Sequence record: MH355584.1
DNA: 64,000 nucleotides
Origin: Escherichia phage vB_EcoM_JB75
Direction: 5' to 3' (one strand)
Shown here: positions 1 through 11,647 of the stretch, piece after piece
Position numbering within the stretch: position 1 is the first letter of the stretch
Layout of the letters: every line of letters starts with the position of its first letter
Made by a program: the position numbers and the translations under genes
Notes under the pieces: generated by a model
Told to the model about the DNA's origin: nothing
Seen by the model: only the letters and a program-made list of their open reading frames with translations
Databases searched by the model: none

Positions 1-117
1 CGTATTATCATAAATGGTAAATATGCTTTAAGAATTATTTGTTATTATTAACTCATACCGCACTGATTAATACCCTCTATCATTAGGGGTTCTTGTTAGA
101 GAGCCTTTGTTAATAAT

Positions 118-190
118 TGGGAATTAGCCAAGTTGGTAAGGCATAGCACTTTGACTGCTAGATGCAAAGGTTCGAGTCCTTTATTCCCAG
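118..190 (+). tRNA. tRNA-Gln (anticodon UUG)
   Basis: Cloverleaf: 7-bp acceptor stem TGGGAAT/ATTCCCA, anticodon loop CUUUGAC, T-loop GGTTCGAGTCC; no encoded CCA. Confidence 0.85.
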
Positions 191-191
191 C

Positions 192-278
192 GCGAGAATG
201 GTCAAATTGGTAAAGGCACAGCACTTAAAATGCTGCGGAATGATTTCCTTGTGGGTTCGAGTCCCACTTCTCGCACCA
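192..278 (+). tRNA. tRNA-Leu (anticodon UAA), long variable arm
   Basis: Acceptor GCGAGAA/TTCTCGC, anticodon stem CAGCA/TGCTG with loop CUUAAAA, encoded CCA. Confidence 0.85.
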
Positions 279-283
279 AATTT

Positions 284-357
<74 letters not shown>

Positions 358-367
358 ATTTAATTTA

Positions 368-441
368 CTCCGTGTAGCTCAGTTTGGTAGAGCGTCTGCT
401 TTGGGAGCAGAATGTCGTAGGTTCAAATCCTGCCACGGAGA
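368..441 (+). tRNA. tRNA-Pro (anticodon UGG)
   Basis: Acceptor CTCCGTG/CACGGAG, anticodon loop UUUGGGA, T-loop GGTTCAAATCC; no encoded CCA. Confidence 0.85.
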
Positions 442-443
442 CT

Positions 444-533
444 GGAGGCGTGGCAGAGTGGTTTAATGCACCGGTCTTGAAAACCGGCAGTCGCTCCGGC
501 GACTCATAGGTTCAAATCCTATCGCCTCCGCCA
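444..533 (+). tRNA. tRNA-Ser (anticodon UGA), long variable arm
   Basis: Acceptor GGAGGCG/CGCCTCC, anticodon stem CCGGT/ACCGG with loop CUUGAAA, encoded CCA. Confidence 0.85.
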
Positions 534-538
534 GTTTT

Positions 539-614
539 GCTGATTTAGCTCAGTAGGTAGAGCACCTCACTTGTAATGAGGACGTCGGCGGTTCGATTCC
601 GTCAATCAGCACCA
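539..614 (+). tRNA. tRNA-Thr (anticodon UGU)
   Basis: Acceptor GCTGATT/AATCAGC, anticodon loop CUUGUAA, T-loop GGTTCGATTCC, encoded CCA. Confidence 0.85.
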
Positions 615-615
615 A

Positions 616-690
616 GGCCCTGTAGCTGGAAGGTTCAAGCAAGCGACTCATAATCGCCAGATGGTGGTTCAATTCCACCCAGGGCCACCA
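616..690 (+). tRNA. tRNA with CAU anticodon (Ile2-type AUA reader by analogy to T4 tRNA-Ile; Met not excluded)
   Basis: Acceptor GGCCCTG/CAGGGCC, anticodon loop CUCAUAA, encoded CCA; identity of CAU tRNAs cannot be decided from sequence alone. Confidence 0.75.
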
Positions 691-703
691 AATTAAGAAT
701 TAA

Positions 704-790
704 GGGGAGTTATCCCGTAGAGGTAGCGGTGTGGACTGTAAATCCATTGTCATTGCGACTCGGGTGGTTCGACTCCATCACTCCCCACCA
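704..790 (+). tRNA. tRNA-Tyr (anticodon GUA), long variable arm
   Basis: Acceptor GGGGAGT/ACTCCCC, anticodon loop CUGUAAA, T-loop GGTTCGACTCC, encoded CCA. Confidence 0.75.
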
Positions 791-794
791 ATTT

Positions 795-869
795 GGATGT
801 GTAGCTCAGTGGTAGAGCAGTTGACTGTTAATCAATTGGTCCATGGTTCGAATCCATGCATGTCCGCCA
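795..869 (+). tRNA. tRNA-Asn (anticodon GUU)
   Basis: Acceptor GGATGTG/CATGTCC (two G-U pairs), D-arm TAGCTCAGTGGTAGAGCA, anticodon loop CUGUUAA, encoded CCA. Confidence 0.75.
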
Positions 870-873
870 AATA

Positions 874-949
874 CGAGGCATAGCTCAGAAGGAAGAGCAA
901 GGACCTTCTAAGTCCTGGGTCGTAGGTTCGATCCCTACTGCCTCGACCA
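874..949 (+). tRNA. tRNA-Arg (anticodon UCU)
   Basis: Acceptor CGAGGCA/TGCCTCG, anticodon stem AGGAC/GTCCT with loop CUUCUAA, encoded CCA. Confidence 0.85.
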
Positions 950-1054
950 GACAAGAAGCCGGGTCGCTACCGGCAAGTCGTCGGACTGATGTTCCCTGTT
1001 TAAGGACTGGTATTAATAAATCTTTATGTTTTGTTAATGTCCCCTTATATCACA

Positions 1055-1216
1055 GCAGAAACGGCGCACCGAATTATCGATTCGAGGAAATATCTTTGCC
1101 GTAAGCCGAGTAGCGTTTTTGACGGAACGTTCGGATATGGTCGAGATATGGCCTTTTAAAAATATTGAGTAGCGTCAACTGCTTAATAACCGGGTTCGAA
1201 TCCCGGCGTTTCGTAC
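1055..1216 (+). ncRNA. Putative small stable RNA with tRNA-like T-arm (compare T4 species 1/2 RNAs downstream of the tRNA cluster)
   Basis: Non-coding stretch after tRNA-Arg with CCGGGTTCGAATCCCGG T-arm-like hairpin at about 1190-1208 and partially paired ends; boundaries approximate. Confidence 0.25.
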
Positions 1217-1262
1217 AAACACTTGCCTTAGCAGGTGGAACCCCGACAAGGTTGCCGCAAGG

Positions 1263-1296
1263 CTTAGCCCCGACCGAAAGGTTGGGGCTTTTTAGT
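1263..1296 (+). repeat. 34-bp direct repeat copy 1 (contains terminator hairpin)
   Basis: CTTAGCCCCGACCGAAAGGTTGGGGCTTTTTAGT, identical to 1818-1851. Confidence 0.9.
1266..1295 (+). terminator. Rho-independent terminator
   Basis: GC-rich stem AGCCCCGACC / GGTTGGGGCT, GAAA loop, T-run. Confidence 0.7.
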
Positions 1297-1303
1297 ATAA
1301 ATA
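1296..1303 (+). promoter_or_regulatory. T4-type late promoter TATAAATA
   Basis: Exact TATAAATA 37 nt upstream of the Ip-type gene start (1340). Confidence 0.5.
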
Positions 1304-1339
1304 AGTATATTAAAACCCCGAATTAAAACAGGAAATAAG

Positions 1340-1813
1340 ATGAAATCATATGCTCAATTTTTAAATGAAGCGGTGTTAAATGAAGCATCTAGCACCGAAA
1401 TTCAAGCTGTCGCAAAAGCAGCCATTGCAGCGGGTAAATATTCCTATAAAGATGCTTCTGACGAATCACGATTCCAATTTGCTCGCGACATGAAAGCAGA
1501 AGGATTTACGGGAAATGCAGTTAGTATGGCCTGGAAAAGTCTAGTTGCTACTGGCGCTGCTTTTGCAAAGGCTTCGGGTAAACCTGCTCCTAAAGCAGAT
1601 CCTAAAGCGGCACAAGAAAAAAATATCGTTAAAGGAATTATCGCTAAATATGAAGCTATCCTTAAAGAGCTTTTAGTAATCAAAACCGAAGGCCAAAAGT
1701 TAGCCCGTGCTTATAGTTTCAAAGATAATCCACATGTTCACTCTCTTGAGTATGTTGAAGACATCCAAAAAATTATTAAAGACCGCATTTGGTCTGCTAA
1801 ACAAATCAAATGA
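1340..1813 (+). CDS. Internal protein (Ip-type), N-terminal capsid-targeting sequence
   Basis: 157 aa; N-terminus MKSYAQFLNEA resembles the T4 IPI/II/III targeting sequence MKTYQEFIAE cut by the prohead protease; RBS AGGAAA. Confidence 0.7.
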   Translation: MKSYAQFLNEAVLNEASSTEIQAVAKAAIAAGKYSYKDASDESRFQFARDMKAEGFTGNAVSMAWKSLVATGAAFAKASGKPAPKADPKAAQEKNIVKGIIAKYEAILKELLVIKTEGQKLARAYSFKDNPHVHSLEYVEDIQKIIKDRIWSAKQIK

Positions 1814-1817
1814 CATT

Positions 1818-1851
1818 CTTAGCCCCGACCGAAAGGTTGGGGCTTTTTAGT
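1818..1851 (+). repeat. 34-bp direct repeat copy 2 (contains terminator hairpin)
   Basis: Perfect copy of 1263-1296. Confidence 0.9.
1821..1850 (+). terminator. Rho-independent terminator
   Basis: Same hairpin plus T-run as at 1266-1295. Confidence 0.7.
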
Positions 1852-1938
1852 TTGAATCACATAGAGAATGCTGCTACGGATAGTAACAAAGTAATAAATA
1901 ATTAATAACCAACCGATAAATTATTTCAAGGATTTTAA

Positions 1939-2502
1939 ATGAAAACCTATGCCGAATTTTTAACCGAAGCAGCAAAATTACCATCTGAAGCAGATCTTAC
2001 TAAAGTATTCTTCCAATTGGACCCAAAAGACCGCGGCGATTTTCTTAAGTGGAAAGCTAAAGCTATTGAAATGTACAACATCGATAATAGTTCTTTTACA
2101 ATGAGTCAAGAAAATAAATTCAATAAAGCATTTTTCAAAATTTCTAAGAAATTGGCATCTGGCGCTCAGGTTCCTAAATCTGTGTTAGCTACTCCTGAAC
2201 GCGCACCTGTTAAAATTTCTAAGAATATGTTCGACACTAAAAAATACGTTAATGCTTTGAATAAAGCTCTTGATGCATTGGATGATGCAAAGAAGGCAGC
2301 CCGCGATCTTCAAGACGTGTACACCGATTTTGACCGCAAAACTAAAGGTTCTATTTCAAATAGCGAACGCAATAGTGTAAGTGTTTATTCTGATAGCCTT
2401 GATGTTCTTGGCGATGCGTATACTGAAATTAAAAATCGTATTAACACTGCATCTAAGCTAAAAGCTGCTGCAGAAGCTATAATAACTAAACTAGGTAAAT
2501 AA
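1939..2502 (+). CDS. Internal protein (Ip-type), N-terminal capsid-targeting sequence
   Basis: 187 aa; N-terminus MKTYAEFLTEAA; lysine-rich. Confidence 0.7.
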   Translation: MKTYAEFLTEAAKLPSEADLTKVFFQLDPKDRGDFLKWKAKAIEMYNIDNSSFTMSQENKFNKAFFKISKKLASGAQVPKSVLATPERAPVKISKNMFDTKKYVNALNKALDALDDAKKAARDLQDVYTDFDRKTKGSISNSERNSVSVYSDSLDVLGDAYTEIKNRINTASKLKAAAEAIITKLGK

Positions 2503-2510
2503 TTTTAAAT

Positions 2511-2535
2511 CCCTATCTAAATGATAGGGCTTTTT
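2511..2535 (+). terminator. Rho-independent terminator
   Basis: Stem CCCTATC / GATAGGG followed by T-run. Confidence 0.6.
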
Positions 2536-2627
2536 GGTATCTAGGCCTTTCTGGACCTCTCTAGGCATCATTTAGTTTATACCCTTTATAATATATTATC
2601 CTATCCTTTAATTGCCCATCCCTGCCC

Positions 2628-2734
2628 TAGAATTCCCTAAAAATTTTTTCACAAAACTGTTTACATCTCTGTTCTTCCATGGTACTATACAACTATCAAC
2701 TACTGATACAGAAAACAACTTGGAGAATGAAATG
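2628..2734 (+). repeat. Promoter/5'UTR cassette copy A (near-identical to 45532-45631)
   Basis: About 100 nt shared, including early promoter, leader and RBS GGAGAATGAAATG. Confidence 0.85.
2659..2688 (+). promoter_or_regulatory. T4-type early promoter (sigma70-like)
   Basis: -35 GTTTAC, 18-bp spacer, -10 TACTAT, upstream A/T tract. Confidence 0.7.
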
Positions 2735-2995
2735 GATAATTACGGCGAACTGTTCAACTTCTTTATGAAATGCGTTTCAGAAGATTTCGGTCGTACAGTG
2801 AATGATATTAAAGTTATCGGTCCTGAACATCCGATGTTTGAAACTTACGCAGTAATGGGTAATGAAGACGGTCAGTGGTATACTGTAAAGGTTGTGATTA
2901 ACATGTTCACTGCTGAAAGTTATGTTAAACTGTCTTCTAAAGTTTACCATGATAACGACGAAATCGCTGAAGAATATTTCAATAATATGAAATAA
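2732..2995 (+). CDS. Hypothetical protein (87 aa)
   Basis: ORF-track frame 2612..2995 trimmed to the ATG after RBS GGAGA; the upstream part of the track ORF is the promoter. Confidence 0.55.
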   Translation: MDNYGELFNFFMKCVSEDFGRTVNDIKVIGPEHPMFETYAVMGNEDGQWYTVKVVINMFTAESYVKLSSKVYHDNDEIAEEYFNNMK

Positions 2996-3051
2996 GTTTA
3001 CATAGGTTCATGATTGAGATATTATGAGCCTATACAAATGAGGAAAACATT

Positions 3052-3387
3052 ATGAAACGTAACTTTAGTAAAGCTTTTTGTAATAGAAATAATTATCCTG
3101 AAGAGCTTTTTGAATCTAAGGACTTTAAAGAGTTTAACGAACGTTCTCAAAACATGCCTGTACAATGGGTGTTAGATTATGCCAAACGTATCTTTGAAGG
3201 CGTGCGGGATATTTGTCCTGATGATGAAGCTCCTTATTTTAAAAAGGCTTGGGAACTCGCCAACCAAGCATATATCAATGCTTTAGAATCTTCTAAAGGT
3301 ACTGACGATGATTTTATTTTATTGGCTATCAATGATGCCGTTATCGAGGCCATTGACGTCTTTATCGATGAGCTAGACGAAGAATAA
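3052..3387 (+). CDS. Hypothetical acidic protein (111 aa)
   Basis: ORF with RBS GAGGAAA; acidic C-terminus. Confidence 0.55.
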   Translation: MKRNFSKAFCNRNNYPEELFESKDFKEFNERSQNMPVQWVLDYAKRIFEGVRDICPDDEAPYFKKAWELANQAYINALESSKGTDDDFILLAINDAVIEAIDVFIDELDEE

Positions 3388-3443
3388 GTTTACAATCTAT
3401 TAAAACGTGATATTATCTAATTATACCAACCTAAGGAAATACT

Positions 3444-4037
3444 ATGAACACACTGAAGAAAATTGTTGAGTTTATTCGCACTAAACTTGGTTCTGCTATG
3501 GCTAAAAATCTATCTGTTGAAGAACAGTATACTGCTGCAGCAGCAAAACTGCTTGATAAAATTAAAGACCTAAAAACTGCTTCTGTTAAATCTATTAATG
3601 AAGAAAAACGTATTCGTGAACTTATTGTTGAAAAGAATAAGCAGGCCGAATCAAAAGAGCGTGAAATTCGCAAGCTTCTTTCTGAAGGTCAAGATGTAAC
3701 AATGCATGCTAAACTCGGTTTACTATATCGTCGAACAGCTGAGCAGTTGACTACTAAGGCTGACGGTTATGCTGAAATGCGAATTGAAATCGCCAAGAAA
3801 GTAGTTGAGTTAGATGATGCTCGTCAAGAACTTGCAGTTAAATTGGAATATATCCGTGAAACTCGTGCGGCAAATGCCCTTGGAATTAGTACTGCCGATG
3901 ATGTAGTTGAAATTGCAGCACTGACTAAGGTTGATATTGAAGATACCCTTGCTCGAGTTGAAACCTTTAATGGTAATATTTCTGGGGTTGAAACTACCTC
4001 TGCCGATGTTCAGGAATACATTAATTCTCTGAAATAA
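3444..4037 (+). CDS. Hypothetical alpha-helical coiled-coil protein (197 aa)
   Basis: Heptad-like charged helical sequence throughout; loosely PspA/IM30-like in composition. Confidence 0.6.
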
Positions 4038-4078
4038 TGATAAGGGGTTTCGGCCCCTTATACTTGGAGTAAATAGGA

Positions 4079-4693
4079 ATGAAAATGAAAATGCAAAGTG
4101 ATTTCAATTCAATGTTTGAAGAGTTCCAAAGACAGGTTGATGTTCCAGACCAATTACTAAATGCTCTTAAACGCATGGCAGAAGGACGTAATTACTATTG
4201 GGGGTCTTCATATGAAACTGATGAAAGCCTTTCCGGAAGATTTTCTAGAGGTAAAAAGTCTTTAATACGTCCTGGAATACTCATTAACAGTATTGAATCA
4301 ATTCATTCATTGACATGCGATTTTGATGTTGAATTTACTGATTTCATTTCTCCTGAATGGACGGTATGTTATTTAAACGACGATTTTGATTATCTCGGTG
4401 TTTATAGTTTAAGTGACGCATGGTTTAAACGTAATTTACAAAAGTCAAATTTATTCTATATTGATACTACAGTAAAATTTCAGGGAAAGAAATATTTCTT
4501 TACTCTTATAGTTGATTCTGAAACGAAGCATGAAAATAAACGTATTCTTAGTAAAAGAAATATCTTGAATATTGTTGATGATCTTTTTGATAAATTAGTG
4601 GAAAATCCTAATTTTGAAAGTGATTTATTACTAGAAAAATTTGTTAAGGAATGTAGAGAATATGTCAAAACCATCACTATACCTTCCAAGTAA
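4079..4693 (+). CDS. Hypothetical protein (204 aa)
   Basis: ORF with RBS GGAG; C-terminus KFVKECREYVK resembles the C-terminal motif of the three following ORFs. Confidence 0.6.
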   Translation: MKMKMQSDFNSMFEEFQRQVDVPDQLLNALKRMAEGRNYYWGSSYETDESLSGRFSRGKKSLIRPGILINSIESIHSLTCDFDVEFTDFISPEWTVCYLNDDFDYLGVYSLSDAWFKRNLQKSNLFYIDTTVKFQGKKYFFTLIVDSETKHENKRILSKRNILNIVDDLFDKLVENPNFESDLLLEKFVKECREYVKTITIPSK

Positions 4694-5054
4694 ACCGTTG
4701 AAGTATGAATTAAAGCGTCAGATAATTTCTACTGATGTGTTAATAGGTCCTGTTATACTCATATCATTTGTAATTCTATTGATTATTGGAGGTGTTTTAG
4801 ATGTTATGACTGATATTGATTCTGGCGAAATACTTGTGTTAATGCTAATTCTTCCATTAATAGTTCCACTTTTATTAGTACCCGTAAATTGGGTAGGATA
4901 CTGGTATCAAGGAAGGCATTATCGTAAACGCGTACGTGATTGGAAAGCACAGTGTAAAAAGATTAAAAAGGAACATCAGCTTAAACTTGCTGCGCATGAA
5001 TTTGATGAAATTATGAAATTTGTTAAGGAATCACGATGCAAAAGCCAAAACTAA
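4662..5054 (+). CDS. Small membrane protein, tandem paralog 1
   Basis: Two hydrophobic helices; C-terminal FVKESRCK motif; start chosen at internal ATG, uncertain. Confidence 0.5.
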   Translation: MSKPSLYLPSKPLKYELKRQIISTDVLIGPVILISFVILLIIGGVLDVMTDIDSGEILVLMLILPLIVPLLLVPVNWVGYWYQGRHYRKRVRDWKAQCKKIKKEHQLKLAAHEFDEIMKFVKESRCKSQN

Positions 5055-5398
5055 ATAAAGTCAAATATTCGTTTCCAGAGGCACTATTAATTCTTGCCGT
5101 ATCAGCATTTGCAGCTCTTGCAGGTAGTCTTATTGGATTGTTAATTGATTGTTTTATTTTAAACATCGACGGCACAGTAATTATAACAGAGGTTTGGAGT
5201 GAACTTCGTTTTACTATAGCGATTTCATTATTTTCATTCTTTGGTACCATGTTATATTTTCATTATGATAATTTTAAAATAAATTGGCAAAGAAAAAAGG
5301 ATTACAAAATACAATTAAAAGAATATAATAGCTACATGTCTTATATTGAAAATGAGTCAATGAAAGAGTTTGTGAGTGATTGTAGGAAAATTAAATGA
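5036..5398 (+). CDS. Small membrane protein, tandem paralog 2
   Basis: 120 aa; hydrophobic helices; C-terminal EFVSDCRKIK. Confidence 0.55.
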   Translation: MQKPKLNKVKYSFPEALLILAVSAFAALAGSLIGLLIDCFILNIDGTVIITEVWSELRFTIAISLFSFFGTMLYFHYDNFKINWQRKKDYKIQLKEYNSYMSYIENESMKEFVSDCRKIK

Positions 5399-5513
5399 TT
5401 TTAAAAACTCGCTGGTATGATTTAGATGATGGGGATGATGGCATTTCAGTTGATAGAGTTGACTGGAATGGTTGTTCCGAAGATATGAAAATTTGTTGAT
5501 TAGGGAGTTTAGA

Positions 5514-5878
5514 ATGGGATATCAAGCAGCTAAGCCATTTACTGTAACAGATGATAAGTTCGTATGTATTCAAAACGGTCGCGCTAAGTTAACGAATGCT
5601 GATTGGTTCACAGATAAGAAGGTTCTTCTGTGGTATATCATTAGTCTTCCTATATCATCGTTCGTATTTTACTTTTTTATAAAAAATCCAATGGACAGAA
5701 TAGGAGATTGGGTTCTTTTAACTATACTTGTTAATATTTTTACAGCAGCAGTATTATCAGGAATATGGCGTATGTTCATTGAAATGCCATGGCGTTTACG
5801 CAGACAACAAAAGATTTTTGATGAAAAGAAATATACTCAAAATTTAAATAACTTTATCACTGAATGCAGGAAATTAAA

Positions 5879-5882
<4 letters not shown>
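5514..5882 (+). CDS. Small membrane protein, tandem paralog 3
   Basis: Start at ATG after RBS GGGAG; hydrophobic helices; C-terminal NFITECRKLK. Confidence 0.55.
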
Positions 5883-6851
<969 letters not shown>

Positions 6852-6855
6852 AGTT

Positions 6856-6885
6856 GTTTACTTTCTCCTAGAATTGTGATAGTAT
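6856..6885 (+). promoter_or_regulatory. T4-type early promoter
   Basis: -35 GTTTAC, 18-bp spacer, -10 TAGTAT. Confidence 0.65.
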
Positions 6886-6939
6886 ATTCACAGTTGCTTG
6901 AAGAGACAAATTACTAATTAAAATATTTAAAGGAAACAT

Positions 6940-7413
6940 ATGAAAACATATCAAGAATTTATCACTGAAGCAGCTATTAATTCTCAAATTATTGCTGAAT
7001 CTTTTACTGATCTTTTGAAATTTAAAAAAGGTCAAAAAATTACTGCTGTATTGGATGATGGTACAGAAGTTGAGATGGATGTACAGGGATATAATTATGC
7101 AGTAGATGGAAAACTGTATAATAAATCTCATGCTAAATTTGATTCATTTGACGACTTTGTTAATACAGTTGAAGATGAAAAAACTCGTCGATCCATTGCA
7201 ACTGGTGATGCTAAGGTTCTTATGGCACATGGTCATGAACGCATTCGCGCTAAACAGAATAAAATGGGTGAAGATAATTTTGCATTAGTTGGTTATCAAT
7301 CTGGTAAACAAACTTATGGCTATCAACGTACTGCTACAATGTATAATAAAAATGGTAAAATTGCCTTTGTAAATAGTAAAGGTTCTATTCAGTACGTTAA
7401 ATCGTTCAAATAA
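6940..7413 (+). CDS. Internal protein (Ip-type), N-terminal capsid-targeting sequence
   Basis: 157 aa; N-terminus MKTYQEFITEAA; sits where T4 has ipIII, downstream of e. Confidence 0.7.
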   Translation: MKTYQEFITEAAINSQIIAESFTDLLKFKKGQKITAVLDDGTEVEMDVQGYNYAVDGKLYNKSHAKFDSFDDFVNTVEDEKTRRSIATGDAKVLMAHGHERIRAKQNKMGEDNFALVGYQSGKQTYGYQRTATMYNKNGKIAFVNSKGSIQYVKSFK

Positions 7414-7566
7414 GCAAATAAGAAATATGGGAACAAACTGGACCTCATGATTCTATGAGGGATTCCCGCCAACCTGTAATAAGGTCGAGCCTGAGTGCGG
7501 TAATGGGTAAATACAGAAATGGACAATTCATGCGCCATGGAATGGCCCAAATTTAGAGAGAATAAA

Positions 7567-8106
7567 ATGAGAACATTTTTAACTGGTCCTTATCTATCCC
7601 TGATGAATGCTTTTACACACCATTCTGATGCTAGAGTAGAAGAAATTTGTAAAAACGATTATATCCCACCATTTGAAGACTTACTTAAACAGTATTGCAC
7701 ACTTCGACTAGATGGTGGACGTCAATCCGGTAAATCAATTGCTGTGACTAACTTCGCTGCTAATTGGTTGTATGATGGCGGAACAGTTATTGTTCTTTCT
7801 AATACTTCAGCTTACGCTAAAATTTCTGCAAATAACATTAAAAAGGAATTTTCGCGTTATTCTAATGATGATATACGTTTTCGTTTATTTACTGATTCTG
7901 TGCGCAGTTTTATTGGTAATAAAGGAAGCAAGTTCAGAGGTTTATCGCTTTCACGAATTTTGTATATAATTGATGAGCCTGTTAAATCTCCTGATATGGA
8001 TAAAATTTACGATATTCATATTGAAACTGTGCAACACTGCTGCAATAGTAAATGTTGCATTGGTGGTATTACTCGTCCACAGTTTTTCGTAATCGGAATG
8101 CAATGA
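7567..8106 (+). CDS. Hypothetical P-loop protein
   Basis: Walker A-like GGRQSGKS; start ambiguous (ATGs at 7519, 7537, 7567). Confidence 0.5.
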   Translation: MRTFLTGPYLSLMNAFTHHSDARVEEICKNDYIPPFEDLLKQYCTLRLDGGRQSGKSIAVTNFAANWLYDGGTVIVLSNTSAYAKISANNIKKEFSRYSNDDIRFRLFTDSVRSFIGNKGSKFRGLSLSRILYIIDEPVKSPDMDKIYDIHIETVQHCCNSKCCIGGITRPQFFVIGMQ

Positions 8107-8432
8107 TGACAGACACTCAGCTTTTCGAATATCTTTATTTTTCGCCAAAAACTATTAAAAATAAATTGGTGAATCATTTTGAAATTTTAGCAAATAATAA
8201 CATTTTGAGCGAATTTTATCCCAAGCAATACAAATTACAAAAAGGTGTATTCAAAGGATGCAGAGTTTTGTGCACTGCTCCTAATGCAAGATTAATGAAT
8301 AAAATTCCGTATTTTACCATGGAATTTATTGATGGACCTTTTAAAGGATTAATTACGCAAAGTTTAATGGCATATGATTCTGAGCCGTTTTTAATTAAAG
8401 AACAATCTTGGATAAATTTATTTTCTAATTGA
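8103..8432 (+). CDS. Hypothetical protein (109 aa)
   Basis: ATG overlaps upstream stop codon. Confidence 0.5.
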
Positions 8433-8439
8433 GGTTTAT

Positions 8440-8802
8440 ATGAAAGCATATCAAATTCTTGAAGGCACACACAAAGGCACTATTTATTTTGAAGATGGTA
8501 TTCAAGCACGAATTATCGTTTCTAAAACCTTTAAAGAGGACTCTTTTGTAGACCCAGAAATTTTCTATGGTTTGCATGCCCGTGAAATTGAAATTGAGCA
8601 ACAGCCTACAGTTAAAATTGAAGGTGGTCAACACCTGAACGTTAACGTTCTGCGTCGTGAAACTCTGGAAGATGCAGTTAAGCATCCGGAAAAATATCCG
8701 CAGCTGACCATCCGTGTATCCGGTTATGCAGTTCGCTTTAACTCTCTGACTCCGGAACAGCAGCGCGACGTTATCGCTCGTACCTTTACCGAGAGTTTGT
8801 AA
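8440..8802 (+). CDS. Autonomous glycyl-radical cofactor, GrcA/YfiD-like
   Basis: C-terminal ~58 aa ([60 protein letters not shown]) match recalled E. coli GrcA, including the glycyl-radical motif RVSGY. Confidence 0.85.
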
Positions 8803-9023
8803 TGGCAAAGATAATTATTGAAGGTTCTGAAGATGTGCTAAATGCTTTCGCCGAGTGGTTTAGTAATTCAGGCGAACAGCAATTTAATGAAGCCTGGAAT
8901 ATGGGTGATATTGATGGAATTTATCCTACGACAGAAATTTCTGTTCAGGGATATGGCATTCATGAACCTATTCGTTTAGTTGAATACGATTTATGCACTG
9001 GTGAGGAAGTCAAATATGATTGA
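8802..9023 (+). CDS. Hypothetical protein (73 aa)
   Basis: ATG overlapping upstream stop (TAATG). Confidence 0.5.
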   Translation: MAKIIIEGSEDVLNAFAEWFSNSGEQQFNEAWNMGDIDGIYPTTEISVQGYGIHEPIRLVEYDLCTGEEVKYD

Positions 9024-9282
9024 AGATATTAAGGGTTATAAACCACATACCGACGAAAAAATCGGTAAAGTAAATGCTATTAAAGACGCTGAAGTTCGTT
9101 TAGGACTTATCTTTGATGCTTTATATGATGAATTCTGGGAAGCGTGGGACGATTGCGAAGACTTTGAACTCGCGAAGAATTATGCTGAAAGCCTCGATCA
9201 GTTAGCTATTGCTAAAACGAAACTCAAAGAAGCCAGTATGTGGGCTTGTCGTGCTGTGTTCCAACCAGAGGAAAAATACTAA
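9016..9282 (+). CDS. Hypothetical protein (88 aa)
   Basis: ATG after RBS GAGGA; acidic and aromatic-rich. Confidence 0.5.
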
Positions 9283-9560
9283 TGGCTCAATTAAGCGCAG
9301 GGTTTGGTTATGAGTATTATACTGCCCCTCGTCGTGTGTCTGCTGCTCCTAAGAAAATTCAAAGTCTTGATGACTTCCAGGAAGTAGTCCGTAACGCTTT
9401 CCAGGACTATGCACGGTATCTTAAAGAAGATTCACAGGACTGTCTCGAAGAAGATGAAATTGCTTACTATACGCAGCGTCTTGAACAGCTCAAAAATCTA
9501 CATGAGGTTCGTGCAGAAGTTTCAAAGTCTATGAATAAATTGATTAGATTTAAAGAATAA
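9282..9560 (+). CDS. Hypothetical protein (92 aa)
   Basis: ATG overlapping upstream stop; helical C-terminus. Confidence 0.5.
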
Positions 9561-9562
9561 CT

Positions 9563-9592
9563 GTTTACTTTTCCTCTTGACTGTGGTATAAT
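9563..9592 (+). promoter_or_regulatory. T4-type early promoter
   Basis: -35 GTTTAC, 18-bp spacer ending TGTGG, -10 TATAAT. Confidence 0.75.
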
Positions 9593-9619
9593 TTTTCTAT
9601 CAGTTAAGAGGAGAACAAC

Positions 9620-10081
9620 ATGACTATCAATACAGAAGTTTTTATCCGTCGAAATAAGCTTCGTCGTCACTTTGAGTCGGAGTTTCGTCAAATTAACAAT
9701 GAGATTCGTGAGGCATCAAAAGCAGCAGGAGTCTCATCGTTTCATCTAAAATATTCTCAACATCTTCTTGATCGTGCAATTCAACGGGAGATTGATGAGA
9801 CATATGTTTTTGAATTATTCCATAAAATAAAAGACCATGTTTTAGAAGTTAATGAATTCCTGAGTATGCCTCCGCGTCCTGACATTGACGAGGATTTTAT
9901 TGATGGGGTTGAATATCGTCCTGGACGTTTAGAAATCACAGATGGAAATCTTTGGCTTGGATTTACGGTTTGTAAGCCTAATGAGAAGTTCAAAAACCCG
10001 TCACTTCAATGCAGGATGGCAATTATCAACAGTCGTCGTTTACCAGGAAAGGCTTCTAAAGCAGTAATTAAAACTCAATGA
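9620..10081 (+). CDS. regB: Site-specific endoribonuclease RegB
   Basis: 153 aa, matches recalled T4 RegB sequence and position. Confidence 0.85.
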   Translation: MTINTEVFIRRNKLRRHFESEFRQINNEIREASKAAGVSSFHLKYSQHLLDRAIQREIDETYVFELFHKIKDHVLEVNEFLSMPPRPDIDEDFIDGVEYRPGRLEITDGNLWLGFTVCKPNEKFKNPSLQCRMAIINSRRLPGKASKAVIKTQ

Positions 10082-10088
10082 GGTAAGC

Positions 10089-10634
10089 ATGAGAAAAGCA
10101 CTACTCGCTGGTCTATTGGCCATTTCAATGATGGCACATAGCTCCGAGCATACTTTCAGTAATGTCCAACTCGATAACATGCGTTACGCGTATCAATTCG
10201 GGGAACAATTTTCTAAGGATGGAAAATATAAAACACACAAAAATATCCACAAGAGCGGATTAGGTCATATAATGGCTGCTATTTTATGGCAAGAAAGCTC
10301 TGGCGGAGTTAATTTAAAATCTAAACCAAAGCATCACGCTTATGGAATGTTCCAAAATTATTTGCCTACTATGCGAGCAAGAGTTAAGGAACTTGGTTAT
10401 AATATGACCGATGCTGAAATAAAAAGAATGTTGAATAAACGATCCAATTCAGCTTCCTGGGCGTACATTGAACTTTCTTATTGGTTAAATATACATAAGG
10501 GCGATATAAGAAAAGCAATATCATCTTATAATTCGGGATGGAATGTTAAAGCAGGTTCTAAATATGCTTCTGAAGTCCTAGAAAAGGCTAATTACCTTAA
10601 AAATAATAAACTTTTGGAAATAGTAAATGACTAA
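10089..10634 (+). CDS. Secreted lytic-transglycosylase-like protein
   Basis: N-terminal signal peptide; SLT-like motifs WQESSGG and AYGMFQ. Confidence 0.65.
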   Translation: MRKALLAGLLAISMMAHSSEHTFSNVQLDNMRYAYQFGEQFSKDGKYKTHKNIHKSGLGHIMAAILWQESSGGVNLKSKPKHHAYGMFQNYLPTMRARVKELGYNMTDAEIKRMLNKRSNSASWAYIELSYWLNIHKGDIRKAISSYNSGWNVKAGSKYASEVLEKANYLKNNKLLEIVND

Positions 10635-10974
10635 AATTTTGGTTTTATGTATAGGATTAATTTCATTTTCTGCTTCTGCGTCAGCAGATACATCATATAC
10701 TGAAATTAGAGAATATGTAAATCGCACTGCGGCAGATTATTGTGGGAAAAATAAAGCATGCCAAGCTGAATTTGCGCAGAAATTAATATATGCATATAAA
10801 GACGGAGAAAGAGATAAATCAAGCAGATACAAAAACGATACATTATTAAAACGATATGCTAAAAAGTGGAATACCTTAGAATGTTCAGTTGCGGAGGAGA
10901 AAGATAAAGCCGCTTGTCATTCAATGGTTGACCGTTTGGTAGATTCTTATAATCGAGGATTGAGTACTAGATGA
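10627..10974 (+). CDS. vs: Secreted small protein at the position of T4 vs
   Basis: 115 aa with signal peptide; size and position between regB and tk match T4 vs; sequence identity not verified. Confidence 0.5.
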   Translation: MTKILVLCIGLISFSASASADTSYTEIREYVNRTAADYCGKNKACQAEFAQKLIYAYKDGERDKSSRYKNDTLLKRYAKKWNTLECSVAEEKDKAACHSMVDRLVDSYNRGLSTR

Positions 10975-11438
10975 TTGTAAAATATATCAAGGGCGATATT
11001 GTCGCCCTTTTCGCTGAAGGTAAAAATATTGCGCATGGATGCAATTGTTTTCATACTATGGGTTCAGGCGTAGCGGGTCAATTAACCAAAGCTTTCCCTA
11101 AAATTTTGGAAGCTGATAAATTACAGACTGAATGGGGTGATGTAACTAAACTCGGTTCTTACTCAGTCTATGAAAAATACTTTAGGACTCATAAAGCGTA
11201 TTGCTTCAACCTTTATACTCAATTTCAACCAGGGCCAAATTTTGAGTATTCCGCTTTAATGAATTGTATGTTAGAATTAAATGAGTTTGGTGAAAATAAA
11301 CTGATTAAACCTACAATCTATATGCCTAGGATTGGTGCAGGCATAGGTAAAGGGAACTGGGATATTATTGAGGGGATTTTAGATACATATTCCTCTAAAT
11401 TAGAAATTGTGATTGTTGATTGGGAACCGTTATTATGA
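10971..11438 (+). CDS. Macro-domain protein (ADP-ribose binding / hydrolase fold)
   Basis: N-terminal GDIV...AHGCNCFHTMGSGVAGQL pattern typical of macro domains; glycine-rich loop IGAGIGKG. Confidence 0.65.
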   Translation: MIVKYIKGDIVALFAEGKNIAHGCNCFHTMGSGVAGQLTKAFPKILEADKLQTEWGDVTKLGSYSVYEKYFRTHKAYCFNLYTQFQPGPNFEYSALMNCMLELNEFGENKLIKPTIYMPRIGAGIGKGNWDIIEGILDTYSSKLEIVIVDWEPLL

Positions 11439-11647
11439 ATATACATTATCCACATCCATATGACCCAAAGAATAAGGCAGTAATTATTCGTCAATGGGAA
11501 CGCATTTGCCGTACTAAATGTCCAATTAATAGTCCGCATGATGTAGATAAAGACTACATTGGAACATTCGTTGAATATACCTTTATTGATAAGAAAGGTC
11601 GTAAACAGCATGTAGAAGAATACTGCTTAAAGGTTACATGGTTATGA
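11435..11647 (+). CDS. Hypothetical protein (70 aa)
   Basis: ATG overlaps upstream stop (ATGA). Confidence 0.45.
   Translation: MNIHYPHPYDPKNKAVIIRQWERICRTKCPINSPHDVDKDYIGTFVEYTFIDKKGRKQHVEEYCLKVTWL

Follow-up and report, generated by a model that had tools for sequence, protein, structure and literature searches.

In Escherichia phage vB_EcoM_JB75 (JB75), the small gene vs.6 contains an internal tract of 172 nucleotides (nt) that is identical to grcA of E. coli and is flanked by phage-type sequence. The gene lies within a 64,000-nt stretch of the JB75 genome (sequence record MH355584.1; one strand, 5′ to 3′), hereafter the window, to which all JB75 coordinates refer. We consider it highly probable (about 0.9) that vs.6 is the Tequatrovirus ortholog of T4 Y06I, a GrcA-like spare part for pyruvate formate-lyase (PFL), in which this tract was replaced by host grcA sequence through gene conversion.

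Results

A 172-nt Tract of vs.6 Is Identical to Host grcA

A first-pass annotation of the window, made from the sequence alone, had described the C-terminal ~58 residues encoded at 8440 to 8802 as those of GrcA, glycyl-radical motif included. The identical segment is in fact 60 residues long, E61-L120 of JB75 vs.6 corresponding to E. coli GrcA E68-L127. When vs.6 was aligned codon by codon with E. coli grcA, positions 8618 to 8789 matched at 172 of 172 nt (GrcA codons 68-123 together with flanking bases of codons 67 and 124), while blastn of the 5′ half of vs.6 against E. coli returned no match. The switch to host-like sequence had been placed at ~8625 and extended to the stop at 8802; the switch is real, but it falls at 8618, and host identity ends at 8789 rather than at the stop. 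Each of the last four codons carries one synonymous difference from the host (ACC GAG AGT TTG in JB75, ACT GAA AGC CTG in E. coli). Nearly the whole structured glycyl-radical domain falls within these bounds, and with it the radical glycine. The 3′ segment from 8618 to 8802 matched grcA at 97.8% in 5426/5426 complete E. coli genomes, and the patch itself was at least 99% identical in 5156/5432 matching E. coli records. Across the aligned codons of the 5′ part (8440-8617), by comparison, identity to E. coli grcA was 49.7% in nt and 19/59 in amino acids (aa).

The composition of the tract is also that of the host, in agreement with the earlier description of host-style codons and a rise in GC content. 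The patch has a GC content of 0.494 versus 0.348 for the vs.6 5′ part and 0.343 for the whole window, and its GC content at third codon positions (GC3) is 0.43, equal to that of E. coli grcA, versus 0.23 for the 5′ part. Only 0.8% of 172-nt windows in the 64 kb reach the GC content of the patch, and all others that do so lie within the tRNA cluster. All five Leu codons of the patch are CTG (5/5 vs 3/79 in neighboring genes), as all three Pro codons are CCG (3/3 vs 4/26). When the remainder of the 64-kb window was searched with megablast, no match to any E. coli chromosome was recovered.

Extreme purifying selection or codon-usage convergence on a conserved domain might yield such a match with no transfer at all. 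The protein domain is extremely conserved, and several phages without host-identical DNA (hereafter unconverted phages) are 97 to 100% identical in aa to the host GrcA C-terminus. However, those with a near-identical protein are just 82 to 84% identical in DNA. RB16-like phages (loci L094-L096) match E. coli GrcA at 100% over the C-terminal 61 residues with a DNA identity of just 82.5%, and conservation of the protein therefore cannot account for the 172-nt match; at a per-site identity of 82.5%, the probability of 172 matches in a row is ~4e-15. Nor do enterobacterial orthologs with an identical protein exceed 92% in DNA. The identity of grcA between enterobacterial genera ranges from 77 to 92% in nt, and the patch is 100% identical to E. 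coli, 98.8% (170/172) to the sister lineage Escherichia sp. MOD1 and at most 92% to other enterobacterial genera, with none of the 13 host loci that encode the same 61 residues in several genera rising above 92% outside Escherichia. The sample of host alleles is small: three are from E. coli, one belongs to the sister Escherichia species, and the K. pneumoniae complex contributes seven. Synonymous sites of the tract match E. coli specifically, whereas the Klebsiella phages described below match Klebsiella instead, with a GC3 of 0.66. Taken as a whole, an origin without transfer is exceedingly improbable. The first-pass annotation had proposed acquisition from the host and had staked this on nucleotide identity above the level of protein conservation; the 172/172 nt found, against ~82% in phages with an identical protein segment, bears it out.

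For the direction of transfer we compared E. coli grcA with that of Citrobacter, which revealed no discontinuity (88.4% identity in the 5′ part, 91.9% in the patch). The sequence moved from host to phage, because E. coli grcA is even against its orthologs in both halves and because the tract has host composition. Judged on this sequence evidence, the 3′ part of JB75 vs.6 is host-derived.

The Tract Appears as an Internal Patch in an Older Phage Homolog

Both composition and identity change abruptly at 8618, and the 60 residues encoded by the vs.6 5′ part match no Pfam or NCBIfam family when searched alone. These observations would suit a de novo fusion, in which a 3′ fragment of host grcA was joined to an unrelated phage open reading frame (ORF) by illegitimate recombination, and the first-pass annotation had likewise pictured a chimera. 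However, N-terminal-only profiles of ~60 residues each, built from ten phage proteins and ten host GrcAs, aligned in hhalign over 58 columns with a probability of 96.8% (E 2.4e-10). Furthermore, RB16, Miro, CC31-like, and T5-like phages share the full-length vs.6 architecture without host-identical DNA, and since vs.6 ends in four phage-type codons, its right junction falls inside a pre-existing homologous gene. Because of this N-terminal homology, the full-length unconverted relatives, and the phage-type last codons, we favor internal replacement in an old phage homolog and regard de novo fusion as highly unlikely. Of the chimera as first described, the host-derived 3′ part stands; the phage-specific N-terminus joined to a host fragment does not, being a diverged GrcA N-terminus in a gene that also ends in phage-type sequence. 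JB75 vs.6 thus displays what appears to be a mosaic, with a host-identical core and homologous but diverged phage sequence on both sides.

The left junction follows GTTAAAATT, where a conserved block of 10 residues begins, and is the same in every E. coli phage examined. In unconverted phage genes, exact blocks of 20 to 35 nt shared with host grcA are confined to the 3′ domain. The right junction varies within the last four codons, which read ACC GAG AGT TTG in JB75, ACT GAA AGT TTG in T4, and ACT GAG AGT CTG in phage locus L084, and most Mosigvirus end in GAG AGT CTA. The GAG AGT tail is common to JB75 and the unconverted Miro and RB16 lineages. Within it, GAGAG (8791-8795) is located 6 nt 5′ of the ATG of the next gene, vs.5, and the homologous GAG is annotated as the ribosome-binding site of the downstream gene in the phage Miro record. 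GAGAG is therefore likely the ribosome-binding site of vs.5, a constraint that would keep the vs.6 tail from conversion.

Host-like DNA in the 5′ half of vs.6 was found by megablast in no phage, and no record spans >33% of the 584-nt E. coli query. Mosigvirus alignments reach 7 nt past the grcA stop codon; we rejected these as host flank, since they represent a gapped chance match over the vs.5 start (TAATGGCTAAA vs TAAGGCTTAAG). No host 3′ flank is retained past the vs.6 stop in the Mosigvirus sequences compared. In Escherichia phage vB-Eco-KMB39 (locus L170, 471-580), vs.6 is split into two annotated coding sequences by a 55-nt perfect tandem duplication (AGTTAAAATTGAAGG...GAAACT) that starts 8 nt 5′ of the host tract's left junction. 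Aberrant recombination at the junction may have left this footprint, or the duplication may be an error of sequencing or assembly.

Klebsiella Phages Carry a Klebsiella-Type Tract

Jiaodavirus, a group of Klebsiella phages that includes KP15 and KPV15, provides a counterpart. Our first host panel contained no K. pneumoniae, and Pseudocitrobacter was the best candidate donor for Jiaodavirus (90 to 93.5%); it was superseded once seven K. pneumoniae-complex grcA alleles were added through the protein database. For Klebsiella loci from long-read assemblies, only the 3′ 216 nt were used because of an upstream frameshift. Against these alleles, KPV15 and PSE-D1 each differ at 4 sites of the 168-nt core, with longest exact matches of 140 and 104 nt, respectively. 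KP185 differs at 7 to 8 of 168 sites (longest exact match 45 nt) and shares a Ser codon with the K. variicola alleles. The Slopekvirus Miro differs at 30 to 33 of 168, and its longest exact match is 17 nt. Core GC3 is 0.66 in PSE-D1 as in K. pneumoniae, and 0.25 in the PSE-D1 5′ part. The Jiaodavirus junctions coincide with those of the E. coli phages, and their tail, ACA GAG GCA CTA, is again phage-type. A contig titled Vagococcus sp. WN89Y (Firmicutes; L032) carries an enterobacterial-type grcA that groups with the Klebsiella/Kluyvera cluster, and is probably contaminated or mislabeled.

Across ~750 phage genomes, the identity distribution was reciprocal and bimodal. The E. coli-type tract query matched 642 phage genomes at ≥95%, 2 at 90 to 95%, and 107 at 80 to 90%, and the K. 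pneumoniae-type query matched 106, 28, and 526 genomes in the same classes. The Klebsiella-type mosaic together with this pattern therefore indicates at least two independent, host-specific replacements. On the sequences compared, conversion is donor-specific, with an E. coli tract in E. coli phages and a K. pneumoniae tract in Jiaodavirus.

The same data bear on whether host reads were simply mis-assembled into the phage genome, as a short tract identical to the DNA of the propagation host might raise. The tract occurs at ≥95%, and its left junction is shared, in 642 phage genomes that were sequenced independently, T2, T4, and RB69 among them; an assembly artefact is excluded on account of that number. 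The tract also sits in frame between phage-type codons, and Klebsiella phages have the Klebsiella version; the chance of an artefact is negligible.

The Patch Is Young and May Have Been Installed More Than Once

Between JB75 and the Mosigvirus HX01, 21/178 sites differ in the 5′ part of vs.6 but only 2/172 in the patch; the patch must therefore be much younger than the split of these phage genera. Between unconverted lineages, 54/178 sites differ in the 5′ part and 39/172 in the patch region. The tract was introduced either on several occasions or on one recent occasion, followed by spread through recombination between phages.

The second course would require a single conversion in the ancestor of Tequatrovirus and Mosigvirus, plus one in Jiaodavirus, followed by spread and homogenization among phages. 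Consistent with it, all E. coli phages examined share one left junction, phage variants within the patch are mostly singletons, and T-even phages recombine freely on co-infection. Divergence within the patch far below that of the 5′ part between genera, the differing right junctions of JB75, T4, and L084, and the sharing of host polymorphisms speak against it, although all three are still compatible with one recent event and subsequent lateral spread. Three of the four sampled Escherichia polymorphic sites (sites 42, 96, and 105) are also polymorphic in the phages, with the same base. These sites do not prove multiple conversions because they are synonymous third positions whose states also occur in unconverted phages; they are suggestive of several donors. 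Overall, a single conversion is possible, though less likely than not.

Matching of the host also occurs without recent transfer. RB16 and Miro (vs.6 at L094-L096 1501-1863 for RB16-like phages and L169 160-522 for Miro) are 82 to 84% identical to the host in nt, yet over the C-terminal 61 residues RB16 matches E. coli GrcA at 100% and Miro does the same for K. pneumoniae GrcA, and the two differ from each other exactly at the two host-variable residues (LLDAVEH in one vs LEDAVKH in the other). These two phages thus appear to follow the host at the protein level, and the match without DNA identity speaks for strong selection on host matching, with conversion as one route to it. The host-identical state may be kept either for its fit to PflB and the PFL-activating enzyme (PFL-AE) or as a by-product of frequent recombination.

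We tentatively propose, at a little short of even odds, that vs.6 evolves in concert with grcA of the current host, its glycyl-radical domain being repeatedly overwritten, by E. coli DNA in Tequatrovirus and Mosigvirus and by K. pneumoniae DNA in Jiaodavirus, and then slowly drifting back toward phage codons under protein-level selection, as in RB16 and Miro. Such a cycle of conversion and amelioration would be favored by the need for an exact fit to PflB and PFL-AE of the host. If so, vs.6 would serve as a natural record of the recent hosts of T4-like phages, and it would be one of few documented examples in which homologous DNA still flows from the host into phages that degrade host DNA and carry modified cytosine.

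Several viral contigs carry related sequences. IMG/VR contig L111 (19 kb) contains a grcA-like gene (1612-1794) with a core identity of 91% to Yersinia grcA. NPDKY occurs in viral contigs L101-L106, and the full NNPDKY in L118 and L120, resembling Haemophilus-type GrcA; nt identity was 83 to 86% for L103 and L118, the two NPDKY-type contigs measured. These contigs may represent further host tracking or host DNA misfiled as viral.

Gene Identity and Neighborhood of vs.6

The whole window is a Tequatrovirus genome segment, with the T4 lysozyme gene (e) at 6357-6851. The order after lysozyme is as in T4, namely an internal virion protein, vs.8-like, vs.7-like, vs.6, vs.5, regB, and a macro-domain protein; vs.7-vs.6-vs.5 is also annotated in T4, RB69, and OE5505, and the two neighbors of vs.6 belong to phrog_2049 and phrog_1986. 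At the DNA level, 8440-8802 is 100% identical to Escherichia phage vB_EcoM_OE5505 and 97.8% to T4. The features of the locus are collected in Table 1.

Table 1. Features of the vs.6 locus in the JB75 window
Feature	Position	Strand	Basis
vs.6/Y06I ortholog, GrcA-like autonomous glycyl-radical cofactor, 120 aa	8440..8802	+	ORF, ATG start, profile matches, synteny
GAGG, Shine-Dalgarno-like sequence	8431..8434	+	5 nt 5′ of vs.6 ATG; read from sequence, presumed function
Phage-lineage 5′ part of vs.6, diverged GrcA N-terminal half	8440..8617	+	Composition, hhalign
Host-derived tract, putative gene conversion, 172 nt	8618..8789	+	100% identity to E. coli grcA
Glycyl-radical motif RVSGYAV	8713..8733	+	Codon alignment, Pfam Gly_radical residues 60-101
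Phage-type tail of vs.6 (last base of ACC, then GAG AGT TTG TAA)	8790..8802	+	Codon alignment
vs.5-like gene, 73 aa	8802..9023	+	ORF; phrog_1986, 148 bits; annotated vs.5 in RB69

JB75 vs.6 is matched over its full length by phrog_1209 (residues 1-120 on profile positions 1-121, 211 bits, E 5.7e-63). Pfam Gly_radical (PF01228) scored 67 bits (cutoff 22.2), and the GrcA model TIGR04365 (IPR011140) scored 154.9 bits over residues 20-120. The E. coli YfiD/GrcA structure (PDB 6OWR) matched with an E of 9e-42, and PFL 697-759 aligned with the C-terminal domain (E 5e-26). In the codon alignment, Gly95 of JB75 vs.6 (codon 8722-8724) corresponds to Gly102, the established radical site of GrcA; the equivalent in JB75 would be Gly95.

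With its own start, Shine-Dalgarno-like GAGG, and stop, vs.6 is a small stand-alone protein and not the C-terminus of a large enzyme. The GAGG overlaps the stop codon of the preceding vs.7-like ORF, and the vs.5 ATG overlaps the vs.6 stop codon (TAATG), an arrangement consistent with translational coupling. Promoter-like sites in 6300-11500 were no commoner than in shuffled sequence (21 vs 20.6) in a promoter and terminator scan, and we therefore make no regulatory claim for this region. An Rfam scan of 1-9000 recovered only tRNAs and no RNA element in or near vs.6. Nolan et al. (PMC1524935) listed vs.6 among the few T4 ORFs of unknown function kept in all T4-like genomes they compared.

Predicted Function and Route of Conversion

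Wagner et al. 2001, as cited in PMC8683613, showed that PFL-AE activates T4 Y06I and that Y06I restores cleaved PFL. Oxygen cleaves PflB at Gly734, YfiD or Y06I binds the cleaved enzyme, PFL-AE radicalizes their glycine, and activity returns (PMC8683613). YfiD residues 61-127 are structured, with the fold of PFL 693-759, and residues 1-60 are disordered yet required for tight binding of cleaved PFL (PMC8683613). By transfer from the near-identical T4 Y06I, the JB75 protein would have the same spare-part role, in line with the PFL repair and the T4 counterpart suggested by the first-pass annotation; the function was shown for the T4 ortholog, a single residue apart. In an infected cell, oxygen would cut host PflB at its radical glycine, the C-terminal domain of vs.6 would replace the lost segment, and host PFL-AE would place a radical on the vs.6 glycine and so restore PFL activity. 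The fermentative output of acetyl-CoA and formate could then be sustained under microaerobic conditions.

A role outside PFL is also conceivable, either in phage nucleotide metabolism (e.g., with the anaerobic ribonucleotide reductase NrdD) or as a decoy titrating PFL-AE of the host. NrdD, a further oxygen-sensitive glycyl-radical enzyme, is encoded by T4-like phages, no vs.6 mutant phenotype was found in the literature searched, and a nucleotide-metabolism role for vs.6 was suggested by Nolan et al. (PMC1524935). However, the domain is of the PFL/GrcA type, and the NrdD-like C-termini of neighboring phage ORFs (RRVSGYL/RRVCGY) share just 13 to 15% identity with it. Moreover, the vs.6 domain is identical to the segment of the host protein that fits PflB, and cleaved PFL regained activity in vitro with T4 Y06I. 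We therefore consider a role other than PFL rescue quite unlikely.

Regarding the route, a full-length grcA homolog adapted to the phage would long have been present in T4-like genomes. Host DNA is broken up in T4-type infection, and replication of the phage relies on recombination; pieces of grcA could therefore invade vs.6 in its homologous 3′ part and be copied there. In an infected E. coli cell, homologous recombination of vs.6 with host grcA would thus swap in the 172-nt tract by gene conversion, limited on the left by the end of phage-host homology and on the right just before the phage-type last codons.

Some points weigh against conversion of a Y06I ortholog as the full account. Where JB75 has GAG, T4 strain 147 carries the host-type GAA, so the ribosome-binding constraint on the tail is not absolute, and the identical left junction of all E. 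coli phages equally fits a single event with phage-to-phage spread. The recombination mechanism is one we infer from sequence patterns, and the function in JB75 rests on transfer from T4 Y06I. Finally, JB75 vs.6 misses the TIGR04365 equivalog trusted cutoff of 170 bits because its N-terminal half is diverged; it falls outside the bacterial equivalog as defined, and is best called a phage homolog with a presumably GrcA-like function.

Other Features of the Window

Ten tRNA genes (Gln, Leu, Gly, Pro, Ser, Thr, Met, Tyr, Asn, and Arg) lie at 118-949. At ~85% identity, the Tyr-Asn stretch (698-855) resembles tRNA arrays that 255 E. coli genomes carry on plasmid records of ~110 kb, perhaps phage-plasmids; these are the sole E. 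coli matches of the window besides the grcA patch. Directly 3′ of the tRNA cluster, 1097-1296 has a GC content as high as that of the grcA patch and no tRNA or Rfam match; it may represent small stable RNAs like those of the T4 tRNA region.

Local GC content rises to 0.47 at 7400-7560, between the internal-protein gene and the vs.8-like ORF; this segment has no Rfam match, and OE5505 annotates a 33-aa hypothetical ORF at 7455-7556. Between lysozyme e and vs.7 (6851-8440), just one gene encodes an internal virion protein (6940-7413, phrog_3155). A tblastn search of the whole window for T4 denV returned no homolog; the denV query was an unverified sequence, which makes this only a lead. The vs.8-like ORF (7567-8106, phrog_1488) also matches, though weakly, the family of terminase large subunits (phrog_2, E 7.7e-6, residues 45-149), which suggests a P-loop ATPase-like fold.

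Discussion

The gene, its family, and its biochemical role are already known, and public annotations already name the gene GrcA. A full-text search found no paper that describes the nucleotide-identical tract or its Klebsiella counterpart, which is not proof that they were never noted, and a BLAST comparison of T4 with E. coli would reveal the tract to anyone. Recurrent host-specific conversion is thus a modestly interesting evolutionary detail on a known gene. It implies uptake of short, homologous stretches of host DNA by strictly lytic T4-like phages, even though they degrade that DNA and carry hydroxymethylcytosine in their own. The tract offers a simple marker of recent host association, and the system is tractable for measuring rates of host-to-phage gene conversion and the selective value of an exact match to the host enzyme.

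To our knowledge, just two PFL spare parts have been validated, T4 Y06I and YfiD, and JB75 vs.6 resembles both. It shares 97.8% of its DNA with T4 Y06I (vs.6) over 363 nt, with one aa difference (Q54P), the same vs.7 and vs.5 neighbors, the same host-identical tract, and the same left junction. In T4 strain 147, however, the exact E. coli match extends to 178 nt with host-type ACT GAA, in contrast to 172 nt and phage-type ACC GAG in JB75. With E. coli GrcA (YfiD, 6OWR), JB75 vs.6 shares the last 60 residues, the 172 nt, and the motif with its radical glycine, together with a homologous N-terminal half and hence a two-part layout of an N-terminal half (disordered in YfiD) and a structured glycyl-radical domain. 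Unlike that of GrcA, the N-terminal half of JB75 vs.6 is 7 residues shorter, retains the low identity given above (19/59 aa, 49.7% nt), and has phage codon usage. The genomic settings also differ, with E. coli grcA between ung and eamB and JB75 vs.6 in a phage operon with an overlapping downstream gene.

Among phages, vs.6 of Jiaodavirus (the KP15/KPV15 group) belongs to the same 5′ lineage (71% N-terminal identity) and has the same mosaic anatomy, but its donor lies in the K. pneumoniae complex and its tract stands a little farther from the host alleles sampled than the E. coli tract does. The unconverted homologs of RB16, Miro, CC31-like, and T5-like phages are full-length and have the same architecture as JB75 vs.6; in contrast, they are 73 to 84% identical in nt to any host, with a longest exact match of 17 to 35 nt and a smaller compositional step.

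A broader parallel comes from cyanophage psbA, in which Zeidner and colleagues in 2005 and Sullivan and colleagues in 2006 reportedly described intragenic host-derived patches. In both cases a phage copy of a host metabolic gene swaps internal segments by homologous recombination, in JB75 on our reading of the mosaic. The gene, host, and phage family differ, and a JB75-type phage has modified DNA and degrades the DNA of its host. Compared with cyanophage psbA, the JB75 tract is 100% identical to the host sequence and coincides with the one domain that is obliged to fit a host enzyme physically.

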